Part shown: one piece after another, positions 2,487-10,473 of the stretch
Layout of the letters: each line of letters begins with the position of its first letter
How positions within the stretch are numbered: the stretch's first letter is position 1
Source: a virus
Taxonomy: Duplodnaviria > Heunggongvirae > Uroviricota > Caudoviricetes
Length of the DNA stretch: 29,430 nucleotides
Direction: 5' to 3' (one strand)
Virus record (IMG/VR): IMGVR_UViG_2778261668_000002
Notes under the pieces: model-generated
The model's database searches: none
Told to the model about the DNA's origin: nothing
Seen by the model: only the letters and a program-made list of their open reading frames with translations
Program-made: the position numbers and the translations under genes

Positions 2487-2711
2487 ATGCATACAGTTTC
2501 TGAAAATCAGTGCGGTAAATACGCATTACTGCTGCAACAGGCCAGAACCGAAGCACAGGCCGACGCTGCGACGCGCTTTTCTTCTCGTCTTGACGCCATG
2601 ATTCGCCATATCACAAAGGCGGAGTTATCCCGCGTGGAGATAGTCGAGCTGCTCAGTCAGGAGTCGGAAAAATTTCACAATATCGGATTGTCTCGCGGGG
2701 AGGTGCTTTGA
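2487..2711 (+). CDS. Early protein of unknown function (position of P2 orf80)
   Basis: 74-aa ORF with GGAG ribosome-binding site; its stop overlaps the next start (TGATG). Confidence 0.55.
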
Positions 2712-3010
2712 TGTCCTGTTCTCATTCAGTTGTATTACTGAATAACGCCTTAAAAATCGCCGTTATGGAAAATGGTGATTTGTCTCTTATTCAACTTTGT
2801 CTTGATAAAGAAAAACGCGACATAACTGAATCTGTTATCGCGATTTATCAGAATGAATTAAACCTCCTGTCTGATGTGGTCAATTTACTTGTTAAACGCG
2901 CTGTATTCCACAAGCAAATTTCCTCAGTGGATGAACTGACAAAATTAACGACAGAACTTGCCAGTTATTGCGCTGATGTATCCAGGAAACTTAACGATAA
3001 AAGGAGCTGA
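2711..3010 (+). CDS. Early protein of unknown function (position of P2 orf81)
   Basis: ORF translationally coupled to the upstream gene; the track's ORF begins at a TTG at 2708, the ATG is at 2711. Confidence 0.55.
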   Translation: MSCSHSVVLLNNALKIAVMENGDLSLIQLCLDKEKRDITESVIAIYQNELNLLSDVVNLLVKRAVFHKQISSVDELTKLTTELASYCADVSRKLNDKRS

Positions 3011-3012
3011 TA

Positions 3013-3237
3013 ATGCCGGACAACGTAGATTTTATTCAGGAACAACAGGCTGAATTACTGGAGCGCCAGATTAACGCGGCAAGGGTAAAACATTGCGGTG
3101 TTTCTTCGCTGGTTTGCGAAGAGTGTGACGCGCCAATACCTGCTGCCCGTCGTGCGGCTTATCCGTCAGCCACGCGTTGTGTTTCCTGTCAGTCAGTCTT
3201 TGAAGCAAAAAACAAACATTACCGGAGAACGGCATGA
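3013..3237 (+). CDS. TraR/DksA-family C4 zinc-finger protein (position of P2 orf82)
   Basis: 74-aa ORF with CEECDAPIP...CVSCQ (CxxC-N17-CxxC) and an AAGGAG ribosome-binding site. Confidence 0.7.
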   Translation: MPDNVDFIQEQQAELLERQINAARVKHCGVSSLVCEECDAPIPAARRAAYPSATRCVSCQSVFEAKNKHYRRTA

Positions 3238-3509
3238 GTATTCGTATTGAAATTGGCGAACGTTATGTCGTTACCAGTGACAGCTTTCAGTTTATTCTCC
3301 ACGAGAAAAAGAGAGCGGAAAGCGGTAAAAACGCCGGTCAGGAATGGCTGGCAGTGGTTGGTTATTACCCGAAATTAAGCCAGCTCGTTTCCGGCCTGAT
3401 GCATCACGATATTCTGACCGGAAGCGCAAAGTCTTTTGCTGATTTAAACGCGCAGGTTGAGCAACTCAGCAGGCGTTGTTCAGAGGCTTTTGGCTCATAT
3501 GGCCGTTAA
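3234..3509 (+). CDS. Early protein of unknown function (position of P2 orf83)
   Basis: 91-aa ORF with GGAG ribosome-binding site; overlaps the A start by 11 nt. Confidence 0.55.
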   Translation: MSIRIEIGERYVVTSDSFQFILHEKKRAESGKNAGQEWLAVVGYYPKLSQLVSGLMHHDILTGSAKSFADLNAQVEQLSRRCSEAFGSYGR

Positions 3510-5784
3510 AGCCTCCGGGCGTTTTGTCCCTCCGTCAGCATTTGCCGCAGGCACCGGTAAGGCGTTTACCGGTGCTTATGCATGGAACGCGCCACGCGAG
3601 GCCGTCGGGCGGGAAAGACCCCTTACACGTGACGAGATGCGTCAGGTGCAAGGTGTTTTATCCACGATTAACCGCCTGCCTTACTTTTTGCGCTCGCTGT
3701 TTACTTCACGCTATGACTACATCCGGCGCAATAAAAGCCCGGTGCACGGGTTTTATTTCCTCACATCCACTTTTCAGCGTCGTTTATGGCCGCGCATTGA
3801 GCGTGTGAATCAGCGCCATGAAATGAACACCGACGCGTCGTTGCTGTTTCTGGCAGAGCGCGACCAGTATGCGCGCCTGCCGGGGATGAATGACAAGGAG
3901 CTGAAAAAGTTTGCCGCCCGAATCTCATCGCAGCTTTTCATGATGTATGAGGAACTCTGCGATGCCTGGGTGGATGCGCATGGCGAAAAAGAATCGCTGT
4001 TTACGGATGAGGCGCAGGCTCACCTGTATGGTCATGTTGCTGGCGCTGCACGTGCTTTCAATATTTCCCCGCTTTACTGGAGAAAATACCGTAAAGGGCA
4101 GATGACCACGAGGCAGGCATATTCTGCCATTGCTCGCCTGTTTAACGATGAGTGGTGGATTAGTCAGCTTAAAGGCCAGCGTATGCGCTGGCATGAGGCG
4201 TTACTGATTGCTGTCGGGGAGGTCAATAAAGACCGTTCACCTTATGCCAGTAAACATGCCATTCGTGATGTGCGTGCGCGCCGCCAGGCAAATCTGGAAT
4301 TTCTTAAATCGTGTGACCTTGAAAACAGGGAAACCGGCGAGCGCATCGACCTTATCAGTAAGGTGATGGGCAGTATTTCTAATCCTGAAATTCGCCGGAT
4401 GGAGCTGATGAACACCATTGCCGGTATTGAGCGTTACGCCGCCTCAGAGGGTGATGTGGGGATGTTTATCACGCTTACCGCGCCGTCAAAGTATCACCCG
4501 ACACGTCAGGTTGGAAAAGGCGAAAATAAAACCGTCCAGCTTAATCACGGCTGGAATGATGAGGCATTTAATCCAAAGGATGCGCAGCGTTATCTCTGCC
4601 GTATCTGGAGCCTGATGCGCACGGCATTCAAGGATAATGATTTACAGGTCTACGGTTTGCGAGTCGTCGAGCCACACCACGACGGAACGCCGCACTGGCA
4701 TATGATGCTTTTTTGTAATCCACGCCAGCGTAACCAGATTATCGAAATCATGCGTCGCTATGCGCTCAAAGAGGATGGCGACGAAAGAGGAGCCGCGCGA
4801 AACCGTTTTCAGGCAAAACACCTTAACCGGGGCGGTGCTGCGGGATATATCGCGAAATACATTTCAAAAAATATCGACGGCTATGCACTGGATGGTCAGC
4901 TCGATAACGATACCGGCAGGCCGCTGAAAGACACTGCCGCGGCTGTTACCGCATGGGCGTCAACGTGGCGCATTCCGCAATTTAAAACGGTTGGCCTGCC
5001 GACAATGGGGGCTTACCGTGAACTACGCAAATTGCCTCGCGGCGTCAGCATTGCTGATGAGTTTGACGAGCGCGTCGAGGCTGCACGCGCCGCCGCAGAC
5101 AGTGGCGATTTTGCGTTGTATATCAGCGCGCAGGGTGGGGCAAATGTCCCGCGCGATTGTCAGACTGTCAGGGTCGCCCGTAGCCCGTCGGATGACGTTA
5201 ACGAGTACGAGGAAGAAGTCGAGAGAGTGGTCGGCATTTACGCGCCGCATCTCGGCGCGCGTCATATTCATATCACCAGAACGACGGACTGGCGCATTGT
5301 GCCGAAAGTTCCGGTCGTTGAGCCTTTGACTTTAAAAAGCGGCATCGCCGCGCCTCGGAGTCCTGTCAATAACTGTGGAAAGCTCACTGGTGGTGATACT
5401 TCGTTACCGGCTCCCACACCTTCTGAGCACGCCGCCGCAGTGCTTAATCTGGTTGATGACGGTGTTATCGAATGGAATGACCCGGAGGTCGTGAGGGCGC
5501 TCAGGGGCGCATTAAAACACGACCTGAGAACACCAAACCGTCAGCAAAGAAGCGGAAGCCCGTTAAAAGCGCATGAAATAGCGCCATCGGCCAGACTGAC
5601 CCGGTCGGAACGAATGCAAATTACCCGTATCCGCGTTGACCTTGCTCAGAACGGTATCAGGCCGCAGCGATGGGAGCTTGAGGCGCTGGTGCGTGGCGCG
5701 ACCGTAAATTATGACGGGAAAAAATTCACGTATCCGGTCGCTGATGAGTGGCCGGGATTCTCAACAGTAATGGAGTGGACATGA
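3499..5784 (+). CDS. A: Rolling-circle replication initiator endonuclease (P2 gpA family)
   Basis: 761-aa product from the ATG at 3499 (MAVKASGRF...; the track's ORF starts at an upstream TTG). Contains a metal-binding HxH motif (EPHHDGTPHWHMMLF) and a catalytic-tyrosine motif (GYIAKYISKNIDGY) typical of rolling-circle Rep proteins. Confidence 0.9.
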   Translation: MAVKASGRFVPPSAFAAGTGKAFTGAYAWNAPREAVGRERPLTRDEMRQVQGVLSTINRLPYFLRSLFTSRYDYIRRNKSPVHGFYFLTSTFQRRLWPRIERVNQRHEMNTDASLLFLAERDQYARLPGMNDKELKKFAARISSQLFMMYEELCDAWVDAHGEKESLFTDEAQAHLYGHVAGAARAFNISPLYWRKYRKGQMTTRQAYSAIARLFNDEWWISQLKGQRMRWHEALLIAVGEVNKDRSPYASKHAIRDVRARRQANLEFLKSCDLENRETGERIDLISKVMGSISNPEIRRMELMNTIAGIERYAASEGDVGMFITLTAPSKYHPTRQVGKGENKTVQLNHGWNDEAFNPKDAQRYLCRIWSLMRTAFKDNDLQVYGLRVVEPHHDGTPHWHMMLFCNPRQRNQIIEIMRRYALKEDGDERGAARNRFQAKHLNRGGAAGYIAKYISKNIDGYALDGQLDNDTGRPLKDTAAAVTAWASTWRIPQFKTVGLPTMGAYRELRKLPRGVSIADEFDERVEAARAAADSGDFALYISAQGGANVPRDCQTVRVARSPSDDVNEYEEEVERVVGIYAPHLGARHIHITRTTDWRIVPKVPVVEPLTLKSGIAAPRSPVNNCGKLTGGDTSLPAPTPSEHAAAVLNLVDDGVIEWNDPEVVRALRGALKHDLRTPNRQQRSGSPLKAHEIAPSARLTRSERMQITRIRVDLAQNGIRPQRWELEALVRGATVNYDGKKFTYPVADEWPGFSTVMEWT

Positions 5785-6236
5785 TGGCAAAAATTCACGA
5801 GGTAAAGCTGCACGCAAAATATTTTGACCTTGTGCTGGAAGGAAAGAAACGCGCAGAGTTTCGGAAAAATGACCGTAATTATGAGCGCGGGGACACGTTG
5901 ATTTTGCATGAATGGGCGCAGGGTGTGTATACGGGGCGAAAGGTTGAAGCCCGGATAACAGATGTTACTGACCTGTCAGACTGGCTGGAAGATTATGTCT
6001 TGCTAAGTATTGAGCTGCTTAATACAGGCGCATATGAGATTGTGAACTGGAAAGAACTTAGTGAGCGTGGTCTGGTATTCAGAATTAATCATGAAATTAT
6101 GCATCAGCTCGGCCTTGCTGTTATGTATGCACCAGAGACGGGGATGTCTGGCGGGGCAATGGTTGCCACGGATGGAGCATGGAACTATTCAGATGAACAG
6201 ATTGAGCGTGCAAAGCAAAACGGGTGGCTTGGATAA
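5781..6236 (+). CDS. ASCH/PUA-like (DUF3850-type) protein with a C-terminal extension containing an HExxH motif
   Basis: Start ATG overlaps the A stop (ATGA at 5781-5784). N-terminal EVKLHAKYFDLVLEGKKRAEFRKNDRNYERGDTLILHEW resembles ASCH-like domains; the C-terminal part contains NHEIMH. Confidence 0.55.
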   Translation: MMAKIHEVKLHAKYFDLVLEGKKRAEFRKNDRNYERGDTLILHEWAQGVYTGRKVEARITDVTDLSDWLEDYVLLSIELLNTGAYEIVNWKELSERGLVFRINHEIMHQLGLAVMYAPETGMSGGAMVATDGAWNYSDEQIERAKQNGWLG

Positions 6237-6442
6237 TGCACAGAATACCGGGCGAGATACCGCAACATAACACTAAAAATATCAAGCTGATGGCTATTGT
6301 TCACCGTCTACAGCAGATTATGGTCAACGAAAATCTGACGCCTGACGAGCTGGTCGGGTGTGCCGAAATAGTCCGGGATAATTACGGGCGGCTTAATTAT
6401 ATCCGTCAGTCCAGAGTTGCTCCACCGCCACGCAGACTATAG
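6236..6442 (+). CDS. Small hypothetical protein, translationally coupled to the ASCH-like gene
   Basis: TAATG overlap at 6234-6238; 68 aa; no recognisable motif. The track shows it from a GTG at 6224. Confidence 0.4.
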   Translation: MHRIPGEIPQHNTKNIKLMAIVHRLQQIMVNENLTPDELVGCAEIVRDNYGRLNYIRQSRVAPPPRRL

Positions 6443-6616
6443 AAAACGCCGTCAGTCTTGAAACTTGTTTTCAGGGCTGGCGGGGTTGAACAACGAGCAT
6501 CGCGAGGCGTTAGTGGTATTGGAACCAATGAGAAAACAAAAAACTCAACGCCTCCCCTCATGTTTGATGGTATGGTCTTGTTTTTAGGTAATGAAGCTTT
6601 ATTCGGGTGACGTGTC

Positions 6617-6622
6617 TAATAT
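6617..6622 (+). promoter_or_regulatory. Candidate -10 element (TAATAT) for the cargo gene
   Basis: TAATAT lies 36 nt upstream of the 6658 ATG in the AT-rich leader; no convincing -35 hexamer, so this is weak. Confidence 0.3.
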
Positions 6623-6657
6623 AGCTTTCTGCATGACGTTAGAATGATGATGAGATC

Positions 6658-7260
6658 ATGTTATTAATGAATGAGAAAAAAAGACAAAAATATCTAAAGA
6701 TAATGTTTGAATGTCAAAAGCGACTTGAAACACTTCATGCTTTATCATCTGGAAGGATTGATGGCATTTATTTTCAAGTGTTAATTGAAATGGAGGCGTT
6801 GCAGCTTAGGAAGCTACTAGAGCTCATTGCATTTTCATCTCTAATTTCACATGAAAAAGCATACGAGAAGGTTACAAAGAAGATTGATGGTGTATGGAAG
6901 GCGAAGAATATATTTAAAGAGTTGGAAAAGATAAACCCTAACTTTTATCCAGTACCAATATCAGGAGTAACCAAAACGGGCTGGACGAAACTAACGGGAG
7001 GTTTTTTGACGAAAAAACAGTTTATCAAGCTATATGATGAATGCTCAAAACATATTCACGTAAGGAACCCATATCGGGTTAGGGAAAACTCGCTGGGGTT
7101 TCATAAAAAAGTTCCAGAGTATTTATCAAGAATTGAAACTCTACTGTTAAAGCACATTGTTTCTCTTGCCGGGAATGAAGAACTTCTTCTTGTAGATGTG
7201 CCTCATTATGAAGACTCTGTAACAGCTATAAAAATGAGCCACCTCGTTAAAATGGGGTGA
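6658..7260 (+). CDS. Orphan AT-rich cargo gene in the P2 tin/old-equivalent slot; candidate single-gene anti-phage defence or abortive-infection protein
   Basis: 200-aa ORF (start 6658 or 6667) in an island of about 30-35% G+C by hand count; K/E-rich, no transmembrane segment; preceded by a 215-bp non-coding AT-rich leader and followed by a hairpin terminator; sits between replication gene A and cos. Confidence 0.65.
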   Translation: MLLMNEKKRQKYLKIMFECQKRLETLHALSSGRIDGIYFQVLIEMEALQLRKLLELIAFSSLISHEKAYEKVTKKIDGVWKAKNIFKELEKINPNFYPVPISGVTKTGWTKLTGGFLTKKQFIKLYDECSKHIHVRNPYRVRENSLGFHKKVPEYLSRIETLLLKHIVSLAGNEELLLVDVPHYEDSVTAIKMSHLVKMG

Positions 7261-7295
7261 AAAATAAGCAATAAATAGTCGATTCTAGTGAACGG

Positions 7296-7320
7296 TCGGC
7301 TATTTTTAGCCGGATTTTTA
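7296..7320 (+). terminator. Rho-independent terminator after the cargo gene
   Basis: Stem CGGCT (7297-7301) / AGCCG (7308-7312) with a T-rich loop, followed by GATTTTTA. Confidence 0.5.
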
Positions 7321-7478
7321 TACTGTTTCCCCTTAATTACAGTCGTTTCTATTCATGCATGTGCTATTGCATCGAATTGCATGCGTTTTCATCCCCTGTT
7401 GCTTATGAGCGTTGTCAGTGCTGGCGCATTCTCGGTATGTTCATGCAACTGCATCAAAATCGCCCCATGAAGCGGGCG

Positions 7479-7497
7479 GGCGAGGCGGGGAAAGCAC
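7479..7497. other. cos cohesive-end site of P2-type phages
   Basis: GGCGAGGCGGGGAAAGCAC matches my recollection of the 19-nt P2 cohesive end; it lies where cos is expected, between the cargo locus and portal gene Q. Confidence 0.55.
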
Positions 7498-7639
7498 TGC
7501 GCGCTGGCGGTGGTGCTGATTTTATTTTTTCGGCGTCTCAGCGCGTCGTGATGGCGTTTAGATTGTGTGCCGGGGCGTCGGTGTGTCTGCGGGCTGTTTT
7601 GCGTGGAGGTGAGCGTGTGAGGGCGTGATGACGGGGTGT

Positions 7640-7661
7640 AAAAAAGCCGCCCGCAGGCGGC
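7640..7661 (-). terminator. Rho-independent terminator of the P-Q operon
   Basis: On the minus strand GCCGCC-(4 nt loop)-GGCGGC followed by TTTTTT, immediately downstream of the Q stop at 7667. Confidence 0.6.
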
Positions 7662-7666
7662 GATGT

Positions 7667-8701
7667 TCAGCCGTTGTCAGTGTCCAGTGAGTAGTTTTTA
7701 AAGCGGATGACCTCCTGACCGAGCCAGCCGTTTATCTCGCGGATCCTGTCCTGTAGCGGGATAAGCTCATTGCGGACAAAGACCTTTGCCACTTTCTCAA
7801 TATCACCCAACGACCCGACGTTCTCCGGCTTGCCGCCCATCAACTGAAAGGGGATGCGGTGCGCGTCCAGCAGGTCAGCGGCGCTGGCTTTTTTGATATT
7901 AAAAAAATCGTCCTTCGTTGCCACTTCACTGAGCGGGATAATTTTAATGCCGTCGGCTTTCCCCTGCGGGGCATAGAGAAACAGATTTTTAAAGTTGTTG
8001 CGGCCTTTCGACTTCACCATGTTTTCGCGAAGCATTTCGATATCGTTGCGATCCTGCACGGCATCAGTGACGTACATGATGTATCCGGCATGTGCGCCGT
8101 TTTCGTAATACTTGCGGCGAAACAGCGTGGCCGACTCATTCAGCCAGGCAGAATTAAGGGCGCTGAGATATTCCGGCAGGCCGTACAGCTCCTGATTAAT
8201 ATCCGGCTCCAGCAGGTGAAACACGGAGCCGGGCGTGAAGGCTGTCGGCTCGTTGAAGGACGGCACCCACCAGTAAACATCCTCTTCCACACCACGGCGG
8301 GTATATTTTGCCGGTGAGGTTTCCAGTCTGATGACCTTACCGGTGGTGCTGTATCGCTTTTCCAGAAACGCATTACCGAACACCAGAAAATCCAGCACAA
8401 AGCGGCTGAAATCCTGTTGCGAAAGCCACGGGTGCGGGATAAACGTTGAAGCCAGAATATTGCGTTTGACGTAAATCGGTGAGCTGTGATGCACGGCAGC
8501 ACGCAGGCTTTTTGCCAGACCGGTAAAGCTGACCGGTGGCTCATACCATCTGCCGTTACTGATACACTCGACGTAATCCAGAATGTCACGGCGGTCGAGT
8601 ACCGGCACCGGCTCACCAAAGGTGAATGCCTCCATTTTCGGGGCGCTGGCGGTCATTGTTTTTGCCGCAGGTTGCGGTGTTTTCCCTTTTTTCTTGCTCA
8701 T
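7667..8701 (-). CDS. Q: Portal protein (P2 gpQ family)
   Basis: 344-aa minus-strand ORF adjacent to cos; its start overlaps the P stop (TGATG); length matches P2 Q. Confidence 0.9.
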   Translation of the reverse strand: MSKKKGKTPQPAAKTMTASAPKMEAFTFGEPVPVLDRRDILDYVECISNGRWYEPPVSFTGLAKSLRAAVHHSSPIYVKRNILASTFIPHPWLSQQDFSRFVLDFLVFGNAFLEKRYSTTGKVIRLETSPAKYTRRGVEEDVYWWVPSFNEPTAFTPGSVFHLLEPDINQELYGLPEYLSALNSAWLNESATLFRRKYYENGAHAGYIMYVTDAVQDRNDIEMLRENMVKSKGRNNFKNLFLYAPQGKADGIKIIPLSEVATKDDFFNIKKASAADLLDAHRIPFQLMGGKPENVGSLGDIEKVAKVFVRNELIPLQDRIREINGWLGQEVIRFKNYSLDTDNG

Positions 8702-10473
8702 CAGTAAAACTCCAGAATGGTGGATGTCAGCGGGGTGCTGATACCGGCGGTGAGTGGCTCATTTAACAGGGCGTGCATGGTCGCCCAGGCGAGGTCGGCG
8801 TGGCTGGCTTCCTCGCTGCGGCTGGCCTCATAGGTGGCGCTGCGTCCGCTGCTGGTCATGGTCTTGCGGATAGCCATAAACGAGCTGGTGATGTCGGTGG
8901 CGCTGACGTCGTATTCCAGACAGCCACGGCGGATAACGTCTTTTGCCTTGAGCACCATTGCGGTTTTCATTTCCGGCGTGTAGCGGATATCACGCGCGGC
9001 GGGATAGAACGAGCGCACGAGCTGGAACACGCCGACACCGAGGCCGGTGGCATCAATTCCGATGTATTCGACGTTGTATTTTCCGGTGAGTTTGCGGATG
9101 GATTCAGCCTGGGTGGCAAAGTCCATGCCTTTCCACTGGTGACGCTCAAGTATTCTGAATTTGCCACCGGCCACCACCGGCGGTGCCAGTACCACGCATC
9201 CGGCGCTGTCGCCACGGTGTGACGGGTCGTAACCAATCCATACCGGGCGGGAGCCGAACGGATTTGCGGCAAACGGCGCATAGTCTTCCCATTCTTCCAG
9301 CGTGTCGACCATGCAGCGTTGCAGCTCCTCGAACGGGAACACCGACGCCTTGTCGTCAACAAATTCACACATGAACAGGTTTTTAAAATCGTCGGCGCTG
9401 TTTTCACGTTTGAGCTGCTCAATGTCGAACAGCGTGCAGCCGCCTTTCAGGGCGTCCTCAATGGTGACAATCTGCCGCCACTGGCCGTCCGCACAGAGAA
9501 GCCCACCGGCAAGGGCGTTATGACTGACGTCGATTTCCACGCGTTCGGCGGCGCTGGCGCGTCCCCGGTTAAACAGTTCACCCGACCAGAACGGGTAGGC
9601 GTCGTGCGCCAGCGTGGACGGGGTGGAGAAATAGGTCGAGCGCAGGTGACTCTGTGAGGCCATACCTGATGCCACCTTACGCAGTACCTGAAAATTCGGG
9701 ATCCAGAAAATCTCGTCGACGTACAGGTCGCCGTTATGGCTCTGCGCGGTGTTGGAGTTGGTGCCGAGAAAAATCAGTTTTGCGCCGTTATTGCCCAGGA
9801 CAATCGGGTCACCGGTCAGGTCAACGTCAACCAGACGGGCAAAGGCGATGATGTATTCGCGGAACACATACGCCTGCGTTTTACTGGCCGACAGAAAAAT
9901 CTGGTTATGGCCGGTTTTCAGGGCGCGCAGCAGCGCCTCGCGGGAAAAATAAAACGTCGCGCCAATCTGGCGGGATTTCAGGATATCGCGGATGCGGTGC
10001 TCAAGCCCGGCGCGATACCAGTGCAACTGATAGTCGAAAGACTGCTCAAAGAAAATCTGCTCCAGCTTTTCGATGGCCTCGTCACTGAAAAAATTCTTTT
10101 TCGGTTTGCGTCGCCCGCCTTTGTTGCGGTTAGCGACGTTCGGATTAAGGTCTGCCTCGTTGCCGGTCTGGTTGTAGCGGTTTACCCGTGCCAGTCGTTC
10201 AATCTGGCGTCCGAGCAGGTCAATTTCCTTGAAGTCACCGCCGGTTTTCTGCGGTTTGATAATGAGCTGGGTCAGCCGCGCTTCCAGACTCATTTCGACA
10301 CGGCTGATGGGGGCAACGCTGTCCCAGCCGTCGCGCTGTTTCCAGCTCTGCACCGTCGGGCGTTTCATCTGCAACATGGCGGCAATCTGCGGCACGGAAA
10401 ACCCCTGCCAGTACAGCAGCGCCGCCTGACGACGCGGGTCGTGTAAAAGAGTGGTGTCTGTGGTGATGGTCAT
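8701..10473 (-). CDS. P: Terminase large subunit (P2 gpP family)
   Basis: 590-aa product from the ATG at 10471-10473 (MTITTDTT..., GAGGT ribosome-binding site); the track extends it to a TTG at 10503. Size and position match P2 P. Confidence 0.9.
   Translation of the reverse strand: MTITTDTTLLHDPRRQAALLYWQGFSVPQIAAMLQMKRPTVQSWKQRDGWDSVAPISRVEMSLEARLTQLIIKPQKTGGDFKEIDLLGRQIERLARVNRYNQTGNEADLNPNVANRNKGGRRKPKKNFFSDEAIEKLEQIFFEQSFDYQLHWYRAGLEHRIRDILKSRQIGATFYFSREALLRALKTGHNQIFLSASKTQAYVFREYIIAFARLVDVDLTGDPIVLGNNGAKLIFLGTNSNTAQSHNGDLYVDEIFWIPNFQVLRKVASGMASQSHLRSTYFSTPSTLAHDAYPFWSGELFNRGRASAAERVEIDVSHNALAGGLLCADGQWRQIVTIEDALKGGCTLFDIEQLKRENSADDFKNLFMCEFVDDKASVFPFEELQRCMVDTLEEWEDYAPFAANPFGSRPVWIGYDPSHRGDSAGCVVLAPPVVAGGKFRILERHQWKGMDFATQAESIRKLTGKYNVEYIGIDATGLGVGVFQLVRSFYPAARDIRYTPEMKTAMVLKAKDVIRRGCLEYDVSATDITSSFMAIRKTMTSSGRSATYEASRSEEASHADLAWATMHALLNEPLTAGISTPLTSTILEFY

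Follow-up and report, generated by a model that had tools for sequence, protein, structure and literature searches.

An intact, two-domain form of phage P2 Orf91 encoded directly after replication gene A: probably a dispensable early-operon accessory protein and not a metalloprotease

IMG/VR virus record IMGVR_UViG_2778261668_000002 (Caudoviricetes) is a DNA of 29,430 nucleotides (nt), referred to here at its full length as the window, in which the replication initiator gene A is directly followed by a gene for a protein of 151 amino acids (aa). The window represents a P2-like Peduovirus phage or prophage. Its region 5400–7700 matches Yersinia phage vB_YpM_50 at 98.7% identity, and the left half of this region has 94–97% identity to many Peduovirus phages, including Wphi, L-413C and P2; overall, nucleotide identity to Peduovirus phages is 95–98%. 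We propose that the 151-aa protein, the intact form of P2 Orf91, is probably a dispensable accessory protein of the early operon, coupled to A, which combines nucleic-acid binding by an ASCH domain with a nucleotide-metabolism-linked function of a DUF7415 domain and is not a zincin. An earlier note on this DNA had described the protein as ASCH-like with a zincin-like HExxH pattern, had considered its gene co-expressed with A, and had left undecided whether it is a replication accessory or part of the cargo module. The sequence observations of that note stand, apart from one on G+C content which is half right, and its interpretation is partly supported, except that the metalloprotease reading fails.

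The gene, orf91, is located at 5781–6236 on the + strand and matches PHROG 1812 over its full length (E value 4e-81), a family annotated as 'unknown function'. Its product is 98.7% identical to gp02 of vB_YpM_50, annotated as 'DUF3850 domain-containing protein'. Versions of 151 aa dominate the databases, in clusters with 126, 510 and 662 member sequences, and the protein is already known in the sense that RefSeq holds near-identical copies, PHROGs the family, and Pfam both domains; the products of A, orf91 and the following gene orf68 have no match in NCBIfam. Because two Pfam domains are present and intact homologues occur at 48–58% identity, orf91 is a real gene. The gene of P2 Orf91 (NP_046796.1, likewise a 'DUF3850 domain-containing protein') is found in the same place and overlaps A in the same ATGA, and its product shares 96% identity with the window protein over aa 1–75, which correspond to the ASCH domain. 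However, the P2 protein is 109 aa long, and after residue ~75 it runs into an unrelated 34-residue tail (HRILGEILPLTVKL...) at the junction with the tin-old cassette, whose genes tin and old follow on the opposite strand. P2 also lacks both DUF7415 and orf68, unlike the window. At the nucleotide level, P2 and the window cease to be homologous at window position ~6004, which is exactly the boundary between the ASCH and DUF7415 domains, and therefore the textbook Orf91 is a two-domain protein in truncated form, cut between its domains at the junction with the tin-old cassette. The intact 151-aa form occurs in vB_YpM_50 and further Peduovirus phages; in Wphi, the two-domain gene is frameshifted into gp91 and gp92.

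The earlier note's assignment of an ASCH/PUA-like N-terminal region is well supported. This domain (aa 5–77; 5793–6011, + strand) matches both PF12961 (DUF3850; E value 2.9e-18; 66.3 bits against a gathering cut-off of 22.9) and PF04266 (ASCH; E value 4.4e-11; 43.8 bits, cut-off 21.2), and is homologous over aa 4–79 to a solved 83-residue stand-alone ASCH protein (PDB: 3IUW_A; E value 2.4e-13). The AlphaFold2 model of aa 5–81 has the five strands (5–11, 24–28, 39–46, 49–64, and 72–81) and one helix of a PUA-like beta-barrel, with block-mean predicted local distance difference test (pLDDT) values of 83–91. The ASCH family is defined by the octapeptide GxKxxExR, and the stretch G21-K22-K23-R24-A25-E26-F27-R28 of the translation fits it. 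The ligands of this family are RNA, single-stranded nucleic acid or modified bases, and Orf91 would be expected to bind ligands of this kind. Proteins with ASCH/DUF3850 only were found in 1,376 phage records of many families, among them T1-like, T7-like, Webervirus, Listeria, Lactobacillus and mycobacteriophages, often as isolated small genes, e.g., among the small early genes of a Tunavirus.

The C-terminal part of the protein (aa 87–139; 6039–6197, + strand) is a DUF7415 domain (PF24187; E value 2.4e-14; 53.7 bits against a gathering cut-off of 27). The family signature is W..S..GL...IN.E..HP.GLA....G.S.G....DG.W.Y, and the window protein has the core residues W90, S94, G97, L98, I102, N103, E105, H108, G111, L112, A113, G121, S123, D131, G132, W134, and Y136. 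It departs from the family in having Q109, where a Pro usually follows H108, and H104, where the residue is mostly Arg or Lys. The full-length AlphaFold2 model, based on an alignment of 135 sequences, has two confident domains (pLDDT 89.4; predicted template modeling score, pTM, 0.53). For DUF7415 alone, the model (pLDDT 93.6; pTM 0.79) has the order helix-helix-strand-strand-helix, with the final helix at 138–146. No fold or sequence relative of the domain was found in the PDB, and the only matches in a structure search of BFVD were further DUF7415 proteins without annotation; on the basis of the model, DUF7415 is predicted to be an alpha/beta module of ~55 residues without a solved relative.

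In this second domain lies the sequence HEIMH, which the earlier note had taken, as part of the string NHEIMH, for a zincin-like pattern. The string is indeed present (H104-E105-I-M-H108; 6090–6104, + strand), lies inside the predicted helix 98–110 of the AlphaFold2 model, and is retained within the P2-like clade down to 48% identity, as would be expected if Orf91 were a zincin-like metalloprotease using these residues. An HExxH is expected 0.016 times from the composition of the protein itself, and two occur in the 24,563 aa of stop-to-stop segments of the whole window; it is thus uncommon, yet within reach of chance in a scan of this extent. Among 148 aligned DUF7415 representatives, the position of the first His is occupied by Arg in 57, Lys in 24, Thr in 18, His in 18 and Asn in 12, and HExxH is therefore not conserved family-wide, whereas the equivalents of E105 and H108 are conserved in 125 of 149 and 145 of 150 representatives, respectively. 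The helix does not sit in a metalloprotease-like fold: the searches gave neither a fold of the zincin type, with its catalytic site and third zinc ligand, nor a protease relative, and the Pfam, PHROGs and NCBIfam matches included no peptidase family. The zincin reading is consequently rejected as largely refuted, and we consider it hardly credible. HEIMH, not supported as a protease site, is better described as a chance feature of one lineage, on a helix whose conserved pattern is N-x-E-x-x-H, and the HExxH string in Orf91 should not be read as a protease signature.

What DUF7415 does may be approached through its distribution. An exhaustive search with phmmer through 1.84 billion representatives yielded 185 DUF7415 clusters at 50% identity. 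Proteins of the family occur in T4-like, T5-like and lambdoid phages. Of 135 proteins scanned, 131 match DUF7415 and few carry another domain; the ASCH-DUF7415 architecture was found in 12, ten of which are the window protein and its own close homologues. In a Jiaodavirus, the gene is found between nrdD and nrdG; in the T5-like Epseptimavirus and Sugarlandvirus, it has nrdD/Sir2-like genes on one side and the gene for an origin-binding protein on the other; and in a Slopekvirus, it is near a Nudix hydrolase. Fusions join the domain to a dATP/dGTP pyrophosphohydrolase (PF04447; three proteins), a thymidylate kinase (dTMP kinase) and an Rv2179c-like 3'-5' exoribonuclease. These contexts, which are guilt by association and as such weak evidence, point to nucleotide or nucleic-acid metabolism during replication. 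The association is consistent across several phage families and previously unreported, and it offers a starting point for finding the function. In P2-like phages, DUF7415 is also seen on its own. In a locus of Brenneria populi, a stand-alone DUF7415 gene (104 aa, with INKEIMHP; 4680–4994 of the locus) lies in the early operon upstream of A, overlaps the stop of an orf82-like zinc-finger gene and is followed at 4991–6004 by a 337-aa gene which, from its SGGKDS motif, looks similar to 3'-phosphoadenosine-5'-phosphosulfate reductase or PP-loop proteins; a DUF7415 match in a Symbiopectobacterium locus is likewise located upstream of A.

The coupling of orf91 to A, claimed in the earlier note, is confirmed in each of its signals. 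Gene A (3499–5784, + strand; Pfam Phage_GPA, E value 5.9e-123) has the length and position of P2 A, with a product of 761 aa when counted from the P2-equivalent ATG. On the same strand and contiguous with it, the orf91 ATG (5781–5783) overlaps the A TGA (5782–5784) in an ATGA at 5781–5784, and a GGAG Shine-Dalgarno sequence, read from the sequence, lies within the 3' end of A at 5772–5775, 5 nt before this ATG. The same ATGA arrangement is found at the A/orf91 junction in P2 and Wphi. At its other end, orf91 meets orf68 in a TAATG (6234–6238), in which the orf91 TAA (6234–6236) and the orf68 ATG (6236–6238) have one base in common. Consensus scans alone revealed no promoter-like site on the + strand between 5400 and 7400, the first such site being at 7412, and neither a promoter-like nor a terminator-like site between 5400 and 7093; in the same kind of scan, the first + strand terminator-like hairpin downstream of A is at 7296–7313. 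Expression of orf91 would thus depend on the early promoter only. In P2 lysogens, the early promoter Pe is repressed by C.

The natural distribution of the gene was examined in complete genomes, phage records and prophage loci. The 3'-terminal 781 nt of A, used as the probe, were found in 1,682 of 5,426 complete E. coli genomes, mostly at 95–99% identity; of these, 380 have the ASCH segment, 351 the DUF7415 segment and 380 orf68. In a spread sample of the E. coli genomes, homology mostly ends at window ~5710–5780, the end of A. The ASCH segment is present in 27 of 75 Peduovirus phage records with this A end and absent from the other 48, which include vB_YpM_22, HQ103, pro147, R18C, fiAA91-ss, 11W, 12W, D8, PhiR44_1 and STYP1. 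A comparison of 64 P2-like loci, 61 of them from different species plus P2, Wphi and vB_YpM_50, showed orf91 after A in these three phages and in one of the 61 loci (L006, an Escherichia sp.). Prophages of E. ruysiae and E. albertii have an A that is 97–98% identical and yet lack orf91, with cargo starting at the A stop. In the E. ruysiae locus, the C-terminus of A is altered (…VSEWNL), and an antisense two-gene cassette, encoding a 586-aa ATPase-like and a 333-aa protein (2591–5353 of the locus, - strand), follows directly; the altered end and adjoining cassette therefore show that a recombination boundary lies right where A ends.

These results bear directly on the idea that Orf91 is an obligatory replication accessory factor working with gpA at the origin. 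It is true that orf91, where present, always lies directly after A on the same strand, coupled or close, even when the homologues have fallen to 52–57% identity, and a preprint, in a methods aside that gives no data, calls it 'an essential protein' (PMC12407873). But the gene is missing in ~77% of the E. coli genomes that carry a closely related 3' end of A (nucleotide identity of at least 95% in most), in the majority of the phage records, in the E. ruysiae and E. albertii prophages, and in about 50 P2-like prophages of other genera as well as PSP3. The obligatory role is therefore largely refuted and, in our view, very improbable, and given the patchy distribution the 'essential' label is not borne out for the family. 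Strict conservation with A in all P2-like phages, which the earlier note had set as a refuting outcome, was not observed either. We conclude that Orf91 is probably dispensable, since it is absent from most A-bearing genomes and phages, truncated in P2 and frameshifted in Wphi.

At the same time, orf91 is not a free-floating moron. In Enterobacter and metagenomic P2-like prophages, the homologues with 52–57% identity are located at a spacing of 5 nt from A or overlap it, and each is then followed by an overlapping orf68 homologue; the arrangement A-orf91-orf68 is therefore old, though frequently lost or replaced. Phages with orf91 and orf68 diverge immediately afterwards, at window 6406–6514, into many different cargos, and the whole A-Q interval is common to only 21 of the 5,426 E. 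coli genomes. On the question posed in the earlier note, the co-occurrence analysis thus shows orf91 tied strictly to neither A nor the cargo, in a fixed slot after A. The earlier note placed the G+C content of orf91 near that of the core genes, which is half right: orf91 (0.465) and orf68 (0.488) are intermediate, not core-like, between A (0.541; Q and P have 0.53–0.575) and the cargo open reading frame (ORF) downstream (0.357).

The slot of orf91 is the left end of the interval between gpA and gpQ, which was defined operationally as the P2 defence hotspot by Rousset et al. 2022 (PMC9122126). Accordingly, it could be argued that Orf91 is anti-phage defence or lysogenic-conversion cargo of the prophage, comparable to P2 tin and old, with the ASCH domain sensing modified phage DNA. 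PUA-superfamily domains including ASCH do serve as sensors in modification-dependent restriction enzymes (PMC12191111), and the ASCH-like BapA is a 5-hydroxymethylcytosine DNA glycosylase that defends against T-even phages; BapA, however, is larger and has two beta-barrels, compared with the ~75-residue ASCH domain of Orf91. The layout also differs, since tin and old run antisense and have a transcript start of their own, whereas orf91 is on the early-operon strand, coupled to A and, as far as the consensus scan goes, without a promoter-like site of its own. Moreover, Orf91 contains no nuclease or other effector domain, belongs to no known defence family (the best PADLOC match, E value 0.025 over 20 residues, is insignificant), and its domains are common in strictly virulent phages. 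We therefore regard a defence role as improbable.

A role in the opposite direction has more to recommend it. Orf91 produced early in infection might counteract an anti-phage system of the host if it sequesters or hydrolyses a nucleotide-derived signal or a modified base, or if it inhibits a nucleotide-depleting defence enzyme. This suggestion is consistent with the patchy, strain-specific presence of the gene on the margin of a hotspot for defence and counter-defence (PMC9122126), with its coupling to the early operon, with the spread of both domains among virulent phages of many families, and with the fusion or adjacency of DUF7415 to dNTP-supply enzymes; in addition, a role against host defences has been suggested for phage DUF3850 fusions by the authors of a survey of ParB-fold proteins. 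Orf91 resembles no characterised anti-defence protein, and we rate counter-defence as possible but unlikely. It overlaps with the explanation that we favour, of which it would be one outcome and the most attractive specific version.

According to that favoured explanation, i.e., a dispensable accessory protein of the early operon, Orf91 would be translated by coupling to A during lytic growth or induction, and its contribution to the lytic cycle would be non-essential. With its ASCH barrel it would bind RNA, single-stranded nucleic acid, a modified base or a nucleotide-related ligand, while DUF7415 would add a second binding or catalytic function, acting on or docking to nucleotide or replication metabolism. 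The protein would benefit the phage under certain conditions, perhaps when it meets a host defence, and would not be an obligatory partner of A. More tentatively, we speculate that DUF7415 is an unrecognised small functional domain, its invariant polar set forming a ligand, metal or catalytic site that acts on nucleotides, or that it docks enzymes to a phage or host nucleotide/replication complex; Orf91 would then couple it to an ASCH reader of nucleic acid or modified bases, e.g., against nucleotide-targeting host defence during P2 replication.

Several points weigh against the explanation as a whole. ASCH-only genes are also found in unrelated settings; in a Kayfunavirus, e.g., one is located between the tail genes 11 and 12. 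Most members of the DUF7415 family, at 60–160 aa, stand alone and lack a partner domain. The proposed link with nucleotide metabolism rests on the gene associations discussed above, with the weakness inherent in them. Literature searches found no paper that mentions DUF7415 and no experiment on P2 Orf91, and for DUF3850 they gave only the survey of ParB-fold proteins; apart from the remark on essentiality, which itself speaks against dispensability, papers on orf91 describe its function as 'unknown'. Finally, the conserved polar residues N103, E105, H108, S123 and D131 of DUF7415 could form a catalytic or metal site.

The following gene, orf68 (6236–6442, + strand), encodes a small conserved protein of 68 aa and is the last of the early operon. 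Its overlap with orf91 was correctly described in the earlier note. The protein matches PHROG 11386 (E value 2e-41) and has no Pfam, NCBIfam or PADLOC match. The family was found in 34 phage records, including gp37 of Eganvirus PSP3, with further copies in loci of Buttiauxella (8578–8823) and Scandinavium (8462–8707), in PSP3 (2501–2710) and in locus L072 (6462–6695). Its conservation is much higher than that of A and orf91 next to it, and it occurs with or without the latter: a core of 34 residues, KLMAIVHRLQQIMVNENLTPxELVGCAEIVRDNY, is almost invariant from Peduovirus to Eganvirus. In distant pairs, e.g., 17–23 of 27–33 differences per pair are at third codon positions; in a 42-codon core, 16–23 of the differences are at third and 2–3 at second positions, and synonymous-only codon changes outnumber those that alter the amino acid. 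Because the substitutions relative to distant homologues are biased in this way to third positions, orf68 is a real gene whose conservation is explained by selection on the protein, and a cis-acting DNA or RNA element was rejected as the cause. A search of Rfam over 5400–7700 on both strands gave no match at an E value of 1 or less.

Where orf91 is absent, orf68 may follow other small genes on the same strand as A. Between A and orf68, PSP3 has tumA/tumB (DinI-like; 1887–2306), the Buttiauxella locus an unannotated 101-aa ORF (8272–8577), and the Scandinavium locus a 58-aa ORF (8286–8462). Within the gpA-gpQ region, the slot between A and orf68 thus acts like a second micro-hotspot, on the sense strand, and the three modules, ASCH, DUF7415 and orf68, also travel separately. 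The interest that remains in this region lies in DUF7415, as an orphan-fold domain tied to nucleotide metabolism, and in the highly conserved orf68.

Downstream of orf68, a spacer of 215 nt leads to the low-G+C cargo ORF (6658–7260, + strand; 200 aa), followed by the cos-proximal region and the portal gene Q (7667–8701, - strand), which is the right border of the variable region. The cargo ORF matches only PHROG 13799, with no match in Pfam, NCBIfam or PADLOC, and the whole A-Q interval containing it is also present in vB_YpM_50. It is a candidate for an uncharacterised hotspot gene, unusually placed on the early-operon strand.

Two further observations concern E. coli sequences. In the predicted proteins P0016, P0018 and P0032, the N-terminus of Cox is joined in frame to DUF7415 (P0016 on 16 contigs), and in P0038 and P0039 the partners are the N-terminus of A and a RepB-like sequence, respectively. 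As real architectures, P0016, P0018, P0038 and P0039 were rejected, their junctions lying inside domains; the chimeric ORFs resemble scars left by deletions in decayed P2-like prophages, in which the replication module was lost and the 3' end of orf91 kept. Separately, eight E. coli records (NZ_CP054371.1, NZ_CP196099.1, NZ_CP074019.1, NZ_AP029046.1, NZ_CP059917.1, NZ_CP066836.1, NZ_CP128931.1, and NZ_CM177009.1) begin at the first base of a P2-like A, so that window 5400 aligns at record position 1902. These chromosomes were apparently rotated by assembly software onto the prophage A instead of dnaA.

When compared with known systems, the window protein shares the PUA-like beta-barrel and the octapeptide with the ASCH proteins 3IUW, the ZmASCH ribonuclease and E. 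coli YqfB, but differs from all three in the fusion of the ASCH domain to DUF7415. YqfB is an N4-acetylcytidine amidohydrolase with the catalytic residues Lys21, Thr24 and Glu74, plus Arg26 (PMC9599836). In an alignment of the octapeptides, the Lys and Arg are kept as K23 and R28, whereas the nucleophile Thr24 is replaced by E26; the Lys-Thr-Glu triad is thus not present, and the window protein does not belong to the YqfB-type enzymes. The cargo of the gpA-gpQ hotspot, i.e., tin, old, retrons and others, resembles orf91 in lying between gpA and gpQ and in being variably present among near-identical phages. In contrast to this cargo, orf91 has no defence-family match, has an intermediate G+C content, combines with many downstream cargos, and is held in a fixed position and orientation after A, coupled to the early operon. 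Together with orf68, it thus forms a semi-conserved left fringe of the hotspot, made up neither of core replication genes nor of typical defence cargo.

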